Source of the DNA: a virus
Taxonomy: Duplodnaviria; Heunggongvirae; Uroviricota; Caudoviricetes
Length of the DNA stretch: 5,915 nt
Virus record (IMG/VR): IMGVR_UViG_2585427735_000012
Reading direction: 5' to 3' (one strand)
Shown: in pieces, positions 1 to 5,915 of the stretch
Position numbering within the stretch: position 1 is the stretch's first letter
Layout: each line of letters starts with the position of its first letter
Notes under the pieces: generated by a model
Told to the model about the DNA's origin: nothing
Database searches by the model: none
The model's input: only the letters and a program-made list of their open reading frames with translations
Translations under genes and position numbers: made by a program

Positions 1-5
1 ATCAG

Positions 6-33
6 TTGACCGATCCAGTGGCTGTGTAAGAAT
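6..33 (+). promoter_or_regulatory. Candidate sigma70 promoter for the transposase (-35 TTGACC 6-11; 16-bp spacer; TG 25-26 plus -10-like AAGAAT 28-33)
   Basis: Hexamer inspection only. The -35 matches consensus 5/6; the -10 is weak (4/6) but has an upstream TG. The predicted start near 40 would lie inside the 5' arm of the hairpin. Confidence 0.25.
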
Positions 34-65
34 CCGGAAACGCTCACTTGTTTCCGGATTTTTTT
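32..65 (+). promoter_or_regulatory. Terminator-like hairpin plus T-tract immediately upstream of the transposase ATG
   Basis: Perfect 10-bp stem ATCCGGAAAC (32-41) / GTTTCCGGAT (50-59) with 8-nt loop GCTCACTT, followed by TTTTTT (60-65) and ATG at 66. The structure is read from the sequence; the function is inferred. Confidence 0.5.
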
Positions 66-1394
66 ATGCACATTGGACAGGCTCTTGATCTGGTATCCCG
101 TTACGATTCTCTGCGTAACCCACTGACTTCTCTGGGGGATTACCTCGACCCCGAACTCATCTCTCGTTGCCTTGCCGAATCAGGTACTGTAACGCTACGC
201 AAGCGCCGTCTTCCCCTCGAAATGATGGTCTGGTGTATTGTTGGCATGGCGCTTGAGCGTAAAGAACCTCTTCACCAGATTGTGAATCGCCTGGACATCA
301 TGTTGCCGGGCAATCGCCCCTTCGTTGCCCCCAGTGCCGTTATTCAGGCCCGCCAGCGCCTGGGAAGTGAGGCTGTCCGCCGCGTGTTCACGAAAACAGC
401 GCAGCTCTGGCATAACGCCACGCCGCATCCGCACTGGTGCGGCCTGACCCTGCTGGCCATCGATGGTGTGTTCTGGCGCACACCGGATACACCAGAGAAC
501 GATGCAGCCTTCCCCCGCCAGACACATGCCGGGAACCCGGCGCTCTACCCGCAGGTCAAAATGGTCTGCCAGATGGAACTGACCAGCCATCTGCTGACGG
601 CTGCAGCCTTCGGCACGATGAAGAACAGCGAAAATGAGCTTGCTGAGCAACTTATAGAACAAACCGGCGATAACACTCTGACGTTAATGGATAAAGGTTA
701 TTACTCACTGGGACTGTTAAATGCCTGGAGCCTGGCGGGAGAACACCGCCACTGGATGATACCTCTCAGAAAGGGAGCGCAATATGAAGAGATCAGAAAA
801 CTGGGTAAAGGCGATCATCTGGTGAAGCTGAAAACCAGCCCGCAGGCACGAAAAAAGTGGCCGGGACTGGGAAATGAAGTGACTGCCCGCCTGCTGACCG
901 TGACGCGCAAAGGAAAAGTCTGCCATCTGCTGACGTCGATGACGGACGCCATGCGCTTCCCCGGAGGAGAAATGGGGGATCTGTACAGTCATCGCTGGGA
1001 AATCGAACTGGGATACAGGGAGATAAAACAGACGATGCAACGGAGCAGGCTGACGCTGAGAAGTAAAAAGCCGGAGCTTGTGGAGCAAGAGCTGTGGGGT
1101 GTCTTACTGGCTTATAATCTGGTGAGATATCAGATGATTAAAATGGCGGAACATCTGAAAGGTTACTGGCCGAATCAACTGAGTTTCTCAGAATCATGCG
1201 GAATGGTGATGAGAATGCTGATGACATTGCAGGGCGCTTCACCGGGACGTATACCGGAGCTGATGCGCGATCTTGCAAGTATGGGACAACTTGTGAAATT
1301 ACCGACAAGAAGGGAAAGGGCCTTCCCGAGAGTGGTAAAGGAGAGGCCCTGGAAATACCCCACAGCCCCGAAAAAGAGCCAGTCAGTTGCTTAA
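66..1394 (+). CDS. insG: IS4-family DDE transposase (InsG-like), 442 aa from ATG 66
   Basis: Open frame 48-1394; ATG at 66 is preferred over the ORF-track TTG at 48. Candidate DDE residues: D 462-464 (L-A-I-D-G), D 690-692 (T-L-M-D-K-G), E 1005-1007. The IS4-family signature Y-x2-R-x3-E-x6-K is read directly as Y 984-986, R 993-995, E 1005-1007, K 1026-1028 ([15 protein letters not shown]). Identity to E. coli IS4 InsG is from memory. Confidence 0.93.
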
Positions 1395-1407
1395 CTGACT
1401 GGCATTA
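1390..1407 (+). repeat. IS4 right terminal inverted repeat (IRR), copy A
   Basis: Last 18 bp of the element, CTTAACTGACTGGCATTA. The 11 bases AACTGACTGGC (1393-1403) form a perfect palindrome with GCCAGTCAGTT (1378-1388). Exact IR limits are from memory of IS4. Confidence 0.5.
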
Positions 1408-1442: not shown

Positions 1443-2558
1443 TTAAATCCCTGCTTTTCTGAATACCTGTGCATCACGCTCACGGAGCTGCTTCAGCGTC
1501 AGCCATTCGCCTTTATCGGTGTAAAATTCATCTGGCGACATACCACCATCCCGAATCAGCTTTGCTCGGGTTTCCCCCACAATCTGTTTTTGTCTGGTGT
1601 AAGGCTGACGCAAAAACCATTCCCTGTAGGTTGTATCTCCGGCCACCACGCCATCCATGCTGGCCCGCTCAGCCGGGGAAATATCGCGAACATCAATACC
1701 CAGTTCCTTCGCTGATTTCAGAATGAACGTTTCCGTTGAGCGGCAGCAGAAATGAATTTTTCCCGGCCCCTGCAAATAAGGCACGCTGTGACCTACAGGT
1801 TTATTATTCAGCGTATATTTGAGGCGATCCCTGATTCGACATTGTGGCGTAGTACGATTATCAAGCGTTGATAACCATTGCTTACCCTTAATCAAATCAT
1901 TATTCGCGCTGGCAAAACTCTCACGGGCAGTAGCAGCAAGATGTCCAACCGCTGTTTTTGCAATGCTGGCCGCATTAGCCCGGCTCATCTGCAATGCACC
2001 ATCCTGAAATCCCTTACTGACATGTCCCCGAATTTTTCTTGCGATCTGCTCATTGGTATCCCCCAGCAAAAAACCCTGACGCACTGTATTTGTTATGCGT
2101 CTGAGCCGATCCGCCTCAAGATCTGAGGCCCACTCACTGAGCAGTCGTCCCTGGAATGGTCGCGCCATTGCAGCGGCATAAAGTGCATCAGGAGAGATAC
2201 CAACCAGAGGGTGAACATCAGCAACAAAATCAGGTAGCATAGAATCAAACAGACTTAACTGATAACCAGCCTCATAAATTGCCAGCTCGTTCAGCTCTCC
2301 GGAGAGACTGGTAAACATGCTGTTAATAGCAGTGCGGTTAACCTTTCTGACGCTCGCCAGAAGTGACTCCAGGCGCTTAACGGTAAAATTACCTGGATCG
2401 AGGCTGTCCAGTGCTATCAGCAGGCGAGCAGTAAGTTCCGCATCGCTGTCATTCAGTATTTTCACCATTCTGGCAGCCACGCCAGTGCTATAGCGGGATA
2501 TCCAGACTGCATGAGCAATTGATTCATCACGCAGCCGTTCATTCACGGTTTGCATCAT
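1443..2558 (-). CDS. Phage minor head / head morphogenesis protein, MuF-like (SPP1 gp7 family), 371 aa
   Basis: Complete ORF with ATG ATG start and SD-like GGAAAT upstream. Motifs typical of the MuF domain are read in the translation: W-L-S-T-L-D-N-R-T-T-P-Q-C-R (about 1830-1870) and G-P-G-K-I-H-F-C-C-R (about 1740-1770). It sits immediately downstream of the portal gene, as in SPP1- and Mu-type head modules. Confidence 0.82.
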   Translation of the reverse strand: MMQTVNERLRDESIAHAVWISRYSTGVAARMVKILNDSDAELTARLLIALDSLDPGNFTVKRLESLLASVRKVNRTAINSMFTSLSGELNELAIYEAGYQLSLFDSMLPDFVADVHPLVGISPDALYAAAMARPFQGRLLSEWASDLEADRLRRITNTVRQGFLLGDTNEQIARKIRGHVSKGFQDGALQMSRANAASIAKTAVGHLAATARESFASANNDLIKGKQWLSTLDNRTTPQCRIRDRLKYTLNNKPVGHSVPYLQGPGKIHFCCRSTETFILKSAKELGIDVRDISPAERASMDGVVAGDTTYREWFLRQPYTRQKQIVGETRAKLIRDGGMSPDEFYTDKGEWLTLKQLRERDAQVFRKAGI

Positions 2559-3945
2559 TGATTTCCATCAGCATTACACTCTGATTTTTTAATTCATCGA
2601 TCACTTCCTCTGGACGGGAATCCTGATCGATAAATTTCAACGCCTGCAACACCCGAACCGCATCAATCTGACGTATATCACCGCCCTGACGCAATGACTG
2701 AACAGCCAGCGCGGAGGATGAGTCAAACACCTGGGCAGATACATCCAGTTCAGTGCGCACATCCACATTGCCACCGCAACTCTCTCCGATCCATTCCGCC
2801 ATTATCTGGAGAATATTATCGAGGGCATCTTCGAGGGAGTTCGCCATTGTATAAAGCGGCGAGTTTTCCTGCATTCGCTCTTCATTAGTCTGATCAACAG
2901 ATTTGGTGGATGTATTTTCAGCACGCAGAAGTTTAGCGCCGGCATGACGCATCTGATTTTCCAGCTTCTCAAGTGATGTTTCGCCAGATTCTATCGCTGC
3001 GCCACTATGTTCAACATATTCGAGGCCATTTTTTGTTCTGTCCTCAAAAATCGTAGCGGTGGATGCACCAACCGTCAGTTCTTCATTCCTGTCCAGCCCG
3101 TAGGCCACCAGCAATGGAACGCGGGTAACATGAAGAATATTGTCCTGCTCGCTCTGGCTTTGCCAGTGCTTGATATTCAGCAAGCCAAGATTAAGCAATG
3201 GCGGTGTACCACGCATAAATCCTGTTTTCTTCGTGTACAGTGTTACCAGAGGAATATCATCACGGCTGGTATTCCATGACTCATGAAGCGTCCAGACAGA
3301 TTCGCCATTAGTGCCTTCGCTACGTCGATAAATTTCAACTCGACGGGGCATAATATGGCGGATCTGCTCCACCTTCTTCTGCCCGAAATCATCACCATCA
3401 ATAATGATGACCTCTTTTATACGCAAATCAGTGAGAACAACTTTCCCTTTTTCAACTTTCGATTTCCATCCAATAACCTGGCGTGGATTCAGCATCGTAA
3501 CGTACGGACGACCACCGGTCGCGTTTTCATCGGCTTTTGTACGAATCTCTTTCATATCCGTTCGTGGATAGTCCACCAGCGCATGTGCCACACCATACTG
3601 AAATGCGAGGCTGAAAAATTGCTGCGCCCACACATCCAGTCGGCTCCCCTCCATGTCGATATTTTCTGCATATTCCCTGATTTTTGCCGGCGTTTCCTCA
3701 CTCAATACTGTCGGCTCTGCAAATATGCGCCCAATATTTTGCTTGATGCTTTCTTCATACACAGGAAGTAGCGTAGCCACAGACAGGCGTTTTTTATAAG
3801 CGTCTTCATCTTCGTTAGGCCATTTTGGGAGATAATTTTCCCCCTGCCTGCGCATTTCAAGCGTACCGCCCATCAGTGCGTCGTTAATATCCCACGCCTC
3901 CAGCATATCGTTATAGTCGAGGTTGGGTGTTGATATATCAGCCAT
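2539..3945 (-). CDS. Phage portal protein, 468 aa
   Basis: Complete ORF between the terminase fragment and the MuF-like gene. Its stop overlaps the MuF start by 20 bp, and its ATG is 2 bp after the terminase stop (TAATTATG). Size and position match a portal; family assignment (DUF4055-like or DUF935-like) is not resolved without an HMM search. Confidence 0.72.
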   Translation of the reverse strand: MADISTPNLDYNDMLEAWDINDALMGGTLEMRRQGENYLPKWPNEDEDAYKKRLSVATLLPVYEESIKQNIGRIFAEPTVLSEETPAKIREYAENIDMEGSRLDVWAQQFFSLAFQYGVAHALVDYPRTDMKEIRTKADENATGGRPYVTMLNPRQVIGWKSKVEKGKVVLTDLRIKEVIIIDGDDFGQKKVEQIRHIMPRRVEIYRRSEGTNGESVWTLHESWNTSRDDIPLVTLYTKKTGFMRGTPPLLNLGLLNIKHWQSQSEQDNILHVTRVPLLVAYGLDRNEELTVGASTATIFEDRTKNGLEYVEHSGAAIESGETSLEKLENQMRHAGAKLLRAENTSTKSVDQTNEERMQENSPLYTMANSLEDALDNILQIMAEWIGESCGGNVDVRTELDVSAQVFDSSSALAVQSLRQGGDIRQIDAVRVLQALKFIDQDSRPEEVIDELKNQSVMLMEINDANRE

Positions 3946-3947
3946 AA

Positions 3948-4508
3948 TTAAATCCGAAGTGATGTGACTCTTCCGGTCGGTTTGACAATAGGGAATTGCT
4001 TAACGATGAAATAACCTCCGGCATCATTCGGGTGATCATTGCCAGATTTTTTATCAGGCTCCCCCTTCTCATCCCAGACCTGTTGCTCCAGAGATTCGGC
4101 ATATAACGGGCAACGCTTCACATTAACTTTATAGCGACGCTCACCATTGGCATTGCAGAACATTGCATTCATTGAGTTAACGCGATCTTTTACTGGCGGG
4201 TTCGAGCTGTTCACCACAACGTTAAAACCAGCCTGCTTAAGCTGGGCTATATCCGTCGTACTTGCGTTACTTGATTTTCTGGAATCCCCGGAAGCATCTG
4301 GATAAATATAAATTTCCCTCACTTTCCGGTAATCATTCCCATCATACAGCCAGAAGCGTTCTTTAATGATGCGGATCATATCCGGCGTATCGTAGGCATT
4401 GATGATTTCAGTTACCGCACATGGAAGCCCCAAACGCAGCACATGGACGATTCCCGCCATCTTTCCAACGTTAAAATCCATCCCAATATAAATCGGCTCC
4501 CCTGGCTG
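3948..4508 (-). pseudogene. Phage terminase large subunit, C-terminal nuclease-domain fragment, 5' end truncated by IS4 copy B
   Basis: The ORF-track Met at 4479-4481 is internal: the frame stays open upstream to the IS junction (..P-G-E-P-I-Y-I-G-M-D-F-N-V-G..). Motifs I-G-M-D-F-N-V-G, Y-P-D-A-S-G-D and D-H-P-N-D-A-G-G-Y resemble terminase nuclease-domain acidic motifs. No ATPase (Walker A/B) part is present in the window. Confidence 0.72.
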
Positions 4509-4526
4509 TAATGCCAGTCAGTTAAG
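4509..4526 (-). repeat. IS4 right terminal inverted repeat (IRR), copy B
   Basis: Mirror of 1390-1407: TAATGCCAGTCAGTTAAG on the + strand, directly abutting the truncated terminase reading frame. Confidence 0.5.
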
Positions 4527-5850
4527 CAACTGACTGGCTCTTTTTCGGGGCTGTGGGGTATTTCCAGGGCCTCTCCTTTACCACTCTCGGGAAGGCCCTT
4601 TCCCTTCTTGTCGGTAATTTCACAAGTTGTCCCATACTTGCAAGATCGCGCATCAGCTCCGGTATACGTCCCGGTGAAGCGCCCTGCAATGTCATCAGCA
4701 TTCTCATCACCATTCCGCATGATTCTGAGAAACTCAGTTGATTCGGCCAGTAACCTTTCAGATGTTCCGCCATTTTAATCATCTGATATCTCACCAGATT
4801 ATAAGCCAGTAAGACACCCCACAGCTCTTGCTCCACAAGCTCCGGCTTTTTACTTCTCAGCGTCAGCCTGCTCCGTTGCATCGTCTGTTTTATCTCCCTG
4901 TATCCCAGTTCGATTTCCCAGCGATGACTGTACAGATCCCCCATTTCTCCTCCGGGGAAGCGCATGGCGTCCGTCATCGACGTCAGCAGATGGCAGACTT
5001 TTCCTTTGCGCGTCACGGTCAGCAGGCGGGCAGTCACTTCATTTCCCAGTCCCGGCCACTTTTTTCGTGCCTGCGGGCTGGTTTTCAGCTTCACCAGATG
5101 ATCGCCTTTACCCAGTTTTCTGATCTCTTCATATTGCGCTCCCTTTCTGAGAGGTATCATCCAGTGGCGGTGTTCTCCCGCCAGGCTCCAGGCATTTAAC
5201 AGTCCCAGTGAGTAATAACCTTTATCCATTAACGTCAGAGTGTTATCGCCGGTTTGTTCTATAAGTTGCTCAGCAAGCTCATTTTCGCTGTTCTTCATCG
5301 TGCCGAAGGCTGCAGCCGTCAGCAGATGGCTGGTCAGTTCCATCTGGCAGACCATTTTGACCTGCGGGTAGAGCGCCGGGTTCCCGGCATGTGTCTGGCG
5401 GGGGAAGGCTGCATCGTTCTCTGGTGTATCCGGTGTGCGCCAGAACACACCATCGATGGCCAGCAGGGTCAGGCCGCACCAGTGCGGATGCGGCGTGGCG
5501 TTATGCCAGAGCTGCGCTGTTTTCGTGAACACGCGGCGGACAGCCTCACTTCCCAGGCGCTGGCGGGCCTGAATAACGGCACTGGGGGCAACGAAGGGGC
5601 GATTGCCCGGCAACATGATGTCCAGGCGATTCACAATCTGGTGAAGAGGTTCTTTACGCTCAAGCGCCATGCCAACAATACACCAGACCATCATTTCGAG
5701 GGGAAGACGGCGCTTGCGTAGCGTTACAGTACCTGATTCGGCAAGGCAACGAGAGATGAGTTCGGGGTCGAGGTAATCCCCCAGAGAAGTCAGTGGGTTA
5801 CGCAGAGAATCGTAACGGGATACCAGATCAAGAGCCTGTCCAATGTGCAT
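4522..5850 (-). CDS. insG: IS4-family DDE transposase (InsG-like), 442 aa from ATG (reverse complement of 5848-5850)
   Basis: Translation identical to the copy A transposase. ORF track gives 4522-5868 with a TTG start; ATG at 5850 is preferred. Confidence 0.93.
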
Positions 5851-5884
5851 AAAAAAATCCGGAAACAAGTGAGCGTTTCCGGAT
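5851..5884 (-). promoter_or_regulatory. Terminator-like hairpin plus T-tract upstream of the copy B transposase start (mirror of 32-65)
   Basis: On the minus strand: ATCCGGAAAC / GTTTCCGGAT stem followed by TTTTTT, then ATG. Confidence 0.5.
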
Positions 5885-5910
5885 TCTTACACAGCCACTG
5901 GATCGGTCAA
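5883..5910 (-). promoter_or_regulatory. Candidate sigma70 promoter for the copy B transposase (mirror of 6-33)
   Basis: Same hexamers as copy A on the minus strand; inspection only. Confidence 0.25.
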
Positions 5911-5915
5911 CTGAT

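Follow-up and report, generated by a model that had tools for sequence, protein, structure and literature searches.

Large terminases of the T4 type and of the Terminase_6 family combine a packaging ATPase and an RNase H-like nuclease in one chain. IS4 of Escherichia coli, a 1426-bp element of the IS4 family and IS4 subgroup, has ends that begin with TAATGCC…, imperfect 18-bp terminal inverted repeats, target duplications of 11–13 bp and a marked preference for palindromic, terminator-like targets. In the IS4-family composite transposons Tn10 and Tn5, two inverted IS copies enclose a passenger. A further point of reference is the Rac cryptic prophage of E. coli K-12, with its markers trkG, ynaK, ydaY and a ParB-like gene, which has lost its head genes. 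The locus described here touches on all of these systems, as prophage head-gene DNA lies between two inverted IS4 copies, one of which ends inside a gene for a large terminase (terL).

The window, by which we mean the whole 5915-nt stretch of DNA analyzed, is symmetric. IS4 arms at 1–1407 and 4509–5915 bracket 3101 nt of phage DNA (1408–4508) with three phage genes, all on the minus strand and in the order terL, portal, minor head. A preliminary description of this DNA had reported the IS4 insertion in terL; it was silent on the second, inverted IS4 (1–1407) in the terminator of the minor-head gene and on the symmetry of the window. The features are as follows.

Positions 1–1407, plus strand: IS4 copy A, nt 20–1426 of the 1426-bp element (Pfam and NCBIfam), its outer (IRL) end cut off by the window start.
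Positions 48–1394, plus strand: transposase ORF of copy A.
Positions 1390–1407: IRR of copy A, CTTAACTGACTGGCATTA.
Positions 1408–1419, no strand assigned: CACCCGAAGGTA, presumed to be one copy of a 12-bp IS4 target and lying in the middle of the rho-independent terminator hairpin that intact prophages carry behind the minor-head gene.
Positions 1443–2558, minus strand: intact 371-aa minor head or head morphogenesis protein, Mu F-like (Pfam Phage_Mu_F; phrog_241, E = 6e-183).
Positions 2539–3945, minus strand: intact 468-aa portal protein (Pfam DUF4055, E = 5e-45; phrog_145 portal, E = 3e-165).
Positions 3948–4508, minus strand: 3′ fragment of terL, codons 248–433 plus stop, covering Terminase_6C profile positions 1–154 of 155 and 100% identical to the intact C terminus.
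Positions 4497–4508, minus strand: 12-bp IS4 target copy CAGCCAGGGGAG, codons 248–251 (Q-P-G-E), within the linker that connects the ATPase domain to the nuclease domain.
Positions 4509–5915, minus strand: IS4 copy B, running from nt 1426 back to nt 20 in the opposite orientation to copy A, matching that copy at all 1407 of 1407 nt and having the same junction as in GCA_900450515.1 and GCA_900448445.1.
Positions 4509–4526: IRR of copy B, reading TAATGCCAGTCAGTTAAG from 4509 inwards.
Positions 4522–5868, minus strand: transposase ORF of copy B, in the same direction as terL.

The terL fragment corresponds, at 100% identity, to residues 248–433 of an intact 433-aa terminase large subunit, encoded by a single 1302-nt gene in E. 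coli ECCHD184 (locus L001; WP_000625348.1) and by the same intact gene in deposited induced-phage records (ON4705xx). The intact protein comprises a Terminase_6N domain (PF03237, residues 24–238) with a Walker A motif (GFGSGKT, 26–32) and a Walker B-like motif (LVDELD, 121–126), followed by a Terminase_6C domain (255–417) with the acidic motifs IGMDFNVG (D258), YPDASGD and DHPNDAGG. The acidic residues of these motifs are the putative catalytic residues of the nuclease. A phmmer search of the intact protein against PDB sequences retrieved no relative, even at E up to 10, and a single-sequence AlphaFold2 model of the 186-aa fragment was unusable (pLDDT 33). Alignment to the intact homologue places the break after residue 247 of the single 433-aa gene, between the ATPase and nuclease domains. 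Because the fragment comprises residues 248–433 exactly, the break falls within the 16-residue inter-domain linker.

The preliminary description had assigned about 187 retained codons to the terminase nuclease domain. Profile searches of 3948–4508 (186 codons plus the stop) agree, returning PF17289 (Terminase_6C) over profile positions 1–154 of 155 (E = 3.5e-11, Pfam) and phrog_10250 ‘terminase large subunit’ (E = 2.8e-55, PHROG); the fragment is thus a complete Terminase_6C RNase H-like nuclease domain. The ATPase half, likewise described as absent from the window, was not recovered there by tblastn of residues 1–247, which yielded only a noise match at E = 7.1. As this half is present in the intact homologue, the window gene is a fragment rather than a functional member of the terminase family and, in contrast to T4-type and other Terminase_6 proteins, the window carries the nuclease half only. 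The portal gene lies directly downstream of the fragment (3945), and in relatives the small terminase gene lies upstream of terL.

Within the fragment, a 177-aa ORF runs on the minus strand from an ATG at 4481 to a stop at 3950–3948. Its frame had been noted as open upstream of this Met through 4508 and across the junction; reading the minus strand confirmed this and carried the open frame to 4517, with an in-frame TGA at 4520–4518. The junction codons read L-A-L/Q-P-G-E-P-I-Y-I-G-M-D-F-N-V-G, where the slash marks the IS4 end (between 4509 and 4508). Also consistent with the initial account, the junction offers no start, as neither ATG, GTG nor TTG occurs among the nine phage codons (QPGEPIYIG) upstream of Met 4481 and no AGGAG-like Shine–Dalgarno sequence was found before the ATG (bases ATTTATATTGGG). 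A candidate hybrid promoter at the IS/phage junction (ATTACA-16-TATATT, 4512–4485, minus strand, just upstream of ATG 4481) matched at 9 of 12 positions, which is chance level, and was therefore rejected as evidence of fragment expression. This promoter-like site (4485–4512) is formed in part by the IS4 end.

Gene calls give some reason to ask whether the 177-aa ORF could be a nuclease gene in its own right, with Met 4481 as its natural start and its ATPase encoded separately. At least 24 contigs carry a gene call for the product, with 97 blocks of the collection listed in the index, and phrog_10250, although annotated as a terminase large subunit, is short (228 positions). The same profile, however, reaches 41 positions upstream of the fragment, and the upstream gene was visibly broken at every examined locus with the 177-aa call, whereas the intact versions, in L001 and in the phage record inspected, are single 1302-nt genes. 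Met 4481 is internal residue 257 of the intact protein and lies inside the first nuclease strand motif, IGMDFNVG, which excludes a natural separate nuclease gene starting there; homologues that naturally begin at this Met were the case that would have spoken against a split gene. We consider the chance of a stand-alone gene negligible.

The loci with this call also show that decay of this terL gene is commonplace. In other strains (among loci L003–L012), terL is broken by IS5 at nt 674–677, by IS3-family elements at nt 739–741 and nt 715–722, by one or two base substitutions, presumed from truncated gene calls to be nonsense changes, and by a 1-nt indel. All of these breaks leave the same 177-aa ORF call, and since the loci were found through the exact 177-aa product, the recurrence partly reflects the search.

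At the right-hand junction of the window, the phage sequence ends at CAGCCAGGGGAG, directly against the terminal base of the IS4 right end (4509). The claim that IS4 splits terL is thereby borne out, with the break abutting the last base of the element in the linker of the 433-aa protein. The same insertion is present in three other assemblies. GCA_900450515.1 and GCA_900448445.1 (L008 and L009) have IS4 at CAGCCAGGGGAG in the orientation and with the junction sequence of the window, while E. coli 14EC029 (NZ_CP024141.1; L002, identical to L006) has it at CAGCCAGGGGAG in the opposite orientation. In all three, the 12-bp target is duplicated at the terL site, so that CAGCCAGGGGAG stands on both sides of IS4, and the 5′ half of terL directly abuts the far IS4 end. 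These assemblies therefore show the ATPase half, with its Walker A motif, beside the outer end of IS4, the arrangement that the preliminary description had proposed to look for in the parent genome; this half encodes a 251-aa, Terminase_6N-only product that ends at a TAA supplied by the IS4 end. In 14EC029, PGAP annotates the two sides as partial terminase pseudogenes (CR538_RS14190 and RS14200) flanking IS4 (CR538_RS14195).

Among 5426 complete E. coli genomes, 14EC029 alone has IS4 at this site in its orientation, and none (0 of 5426) has it in the orientation of the window. IS4 in terL at this site is thus rare but not unique. All three assemblies share with the window the prophage family, the gene and the 12-bp target, and their 186-codon 3′ fragment is identical to that of the window. 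They differ in having no second IS4 in the minor-head terminator, after which the DUF6651 and capsid genes follow directly. L008 and L009 match the window exactly in the terL fragment and the IS4 junction, with a one-base difference in IS4 itself; in the portal and minor-head genes there are 47 mismatches to the window (window 1488–3876). Such a pattern, 47 differences beside an identical junction, would fit an exchange by recombination between prophages as well as a separate insertion of IS4 at this target.

Each IS4 copy of the window encodes a 448-aa transposase with Nterm_IS4 (PF13006) and DDE_Tnp_1 (PF01609) domains, as known for IS4 of E. coli, and the transposase scores 299.5 bits against NCBIfam transpos_IS4_1 (NF033592; cut-off 115). 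Copy A is 99.9% identical to the annotated IS4 of NZ_CP024141.1. The full element in 14EC029 measures 1426 bp, with ends TAATGCCGATCAGTTAAG… and …CTTAACTGACTGGCATTA, both of which can also be read in L008. Compared with known IS4, the element itself is no different, except that the window copies are cut at nt 20. Both run from IS4 nt 20 to IRR, with the IRR ends facing inward, so that the window lacks IRL and the first 19 nt and contains only the inner copy of each IS4 target. The IRR end holds a hairpin with an 11-bp stem (GCCAGTCAGTT-AAGC-AACTGACTGGC) followed by TCTTTTTC (window 1378–1403 and 4513–4538). It overlaps the transposase stop codon and scores as terminator-like for transcription entering the IS from the IRR side.

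The left-hand junction lies in what is, in L001 (5997–6016), an intact terminator, AGGCUACC-UUCG-GGUGGCCU followed by a U-run (−13.8 kcal/mol, z = −3.0). For comparison, we collected six IS4 targets, namely adhE/tdk, yeeJ, ymcF, a site inside another IS and terL in both orientations (flanks at L002 9090–9101, L008 8536–8547, L013, L014, L016 and L018). The chromosomal targets (yeeJ, adhE/tdk and ymcF) are clear palindromes of one shape, consisting of an A-run, NGG, CTCC-N4-5-GGAG (the 12–13-bp duplication), CCN and then a T-rich arm; the other collected targets match it in part. In general, the specificity for target arms is strong in the IS4 subgroup (De Palmenaer et al., PMC2266710). The left site, next to copy A, fits both this shape and the 12-bp register of the six others, so the junction has the appearance of a true IS4 insertion and not of a chance break. 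Only one arm of the terL target (AAATCGG-CTCC) conforms to the shape, yet this target is occupied in both orientations.

Exact-pattern searches for the left, right and predicted outer-left junctions in genome, metagenome and viral contigs returned no relevant match. One pattern match, in a Pseudomonas MAG contig (L015), was a chance terminator match without IS4. Neither window junction occurs in complete E. coli genomes (0) or in the phage and plasmid collections, and look-up of the junction-spanning 74-aa and 102-aa ORFs retrieved no record.

In contrast to the junctions, the phage DNA between the IS4 copies is well represented. Many complete E. coli genomes contain prophage DNA that matches the segment 1408–4508 at 100% identity, which far outweighs a chance origin, and at least 80% of the segment is present in 723 of 5426. 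The minor head protein is identical to WP_001351715.1 from the intact prophage of ECCHD184. Some phage records (for example, L019 5954–7066) label the product of this gene (1443–2558) ‘NAD+--asparagine ADP-ribosyltransferase’. The window protein matches only the first 365 of the 679 positions of phrog_241, so longer relatives have a further C-terminal part that the window protein lacks. Scans of the window for Rfam families and tRNAs returned no match. In relatives, the segment is adjoined by trkG, ynaK/ParB-like and ydaY genes and the full head–tail module is kept, which identifies a Rac-like prophage with a complete head–tail module. The presence of trkG, ynaK, ydaY and the ParB-like gene near the segment is the likeness to Rac of K-12; the retained head–tail module, and the recovery of some relatives as phage records, set these prophages apart from it. 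Very probably, then, the central 3.1 kb come from the late operon, which encodes the head, of a lambdoid, Rac-like prophage in E. coli or Shigella.

Because both window ends lie inside IS4, at nt 20, neither the outer flanks nor the ATPase half can be seen for this genome. The statement that the insertion left only the nuclease domain accordingly holds for the window and does not necessarily hold for the genome, as the window stops inside the IS. The identical end points also give the window the look of a contig that was carried on into a collapsed repeat, and assembly itself may have made the two arms perfectly identical.

Taken further, this observation would mean that the assembler attached IS4 arms to a repeat-bounded 3.1-kb contig, or that reads of several strains were chained, and that one or both junctions do not coexist in a single genome. 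Ends at the same nucleotide and arms identical at 1407 of 1407 nt are indeed typical of such contigs, but each junction coincides exactly with the last base of IS4, the right one occurs independently in two other assemblies and the left one is in the correct 12-bp register of a consensus-type target. Moreover, the segment meets an IRR at each end, an arrangement that calls for two IS copies or else two populations, and a mixed population produces branches that normally break a contig. Pure misassembly is therefore unlikely, and we give an artefact of either kind very little credence.

The geometry of the arms raises a different question. Two identical inverted IS4 copies with IRR inward correspond to a composite transposon and form a substrate for inversion, the outer flanks lie beyond the window, and the two-IS arrangement was matched in no collection searched. 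An IS4-associated rearrangement, whether an inversion between the copies, an IS-mediated deletion or a composite move in the manner of Tn10 or Tn5, could account for these features and would leave the ATPase half elsewhere or absent. Both inner junctions are, however, precise IS ends at sites that fit the IS4 target preference; the right junction is the same simple insertion, with target duplication, that is seen in L008 and L009; and neither the left junction nor the whole unit was matched in any other context. A rearrangement is thus unlikely, although less so than an assembly artefact, and as terL is split by IS4 under this account too, the original finding stands.

The resemblance to Tn10 and Tn5 lies in the two inverted IS copies around a passenger (1407-nt arms, 3101 nt apart). 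Unlike in those transposons, nothing indicates past movement of the unit, its passenger is an unbroken stretch of prophage DNA, and the outer ends with their duplication are beyond the window. It is conceivable, at long odds, that the inverted IS4 pair forms a functional 5.95-kb composite transposon that has carried, or could carry, the portal, minor-head and terminase-nuclease genes out of the prophage; a more modest version of the same speculation would have the preference of IS4 for terminator-like palindromes make the terL linker a recurrent, orientation-independent IS4 site, so that Rac-like prophages are disabled there again and again. Only the inverted IS4 pair around the segment is mildly unusual.

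The most economical history, and very probably the correct one, is that IS4 entered a decaying prophage twice by ordinary insertion, at sites about 3.1 kb apart, one of the insertions splitting terL. The sequence itself establishes what the fragment is, where the break lies, which IS end it meets and what the target is; from these we infer where the ATPase half lies in this genome, in what order the events took place and that packaging was lost. Copy B would have transposed into terL at CAGCCAGGGGAG (codons 248–251), in the linker between the packaging ATPase and the RNase H-like nuclease. As IS4 ends begin with TAATGCC, the upstream half of terL stops at an IS-supplied TAA (after 251 aa in relatives), and the downstream 186 codons are left without a promoter-proximal start or ribosome-binding site. 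With one half stopped and the other startless, terL becomes a two-piece pseudogene, of which the window holds the nuclease piece. The transposase is in a different frame from terL and stops at 4522, so no fusion protein is possible. Copy A sits in the hairpin of the terminator beyond the minor-head gene, in keeping with the liking of IS4 for terminator-like palindromes.

Two simple insertions predict, on the plus strand, …AAAAAAGGCCACCCGAAGGTA/TAATGCCGATCAGTTAAGG… to the left of copy A and …CCTTAACTGATCGGCATTA/CTCCCCTGGCTGCTCCACTTC…, leading into the 5′ half of terL, to the right of copy B, where the slash marks the junction. Under either pairing, the outer flanks would be expected to read …GATCGGCATTA/CTCCCCTGGCTGCTCCACTTC (plus strand) on the side of the terL 5′ half and …AAAAAAGGCCACCCGAAGGTA/TAATGCCGATC on the DUF6651/capsid side.

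A large terminase probably needs its ATPase and nuclease in one chain docked on the portal, and from what is known of large terminases it is a reasonable inference, as the preliminary description stated, that this prophage would be unable to package DNA or to cut it. The portal may likewise be translated less well, because its start (3945) lies 2 nt beyond the terL stop and no ribosome-binding site is evident there. At the far end of the segment, copy A would break the terminator and present its own IRR-end hairpin and T-run to transcripts from the minor-head gene, and it may be polar on the capsid genes.

An IS-disrupted prophage terL represents routine prophage decay, and the insertion seen here was already present in public genomes and had already been annotated once. 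In annotation, the 177-aa ‘terminase’ ORF should appear as the 3′ part of a pseudogene disrupted by IS4, and the prophage should be scored as packaging-defective; beyond annotation, the result matters little. The inactivation of the same terL gene by IS4 in both orientations, by IS5, by IS3-family elements, by substitutions and by a frameshift illustrates how routine such decay is among these prophages.
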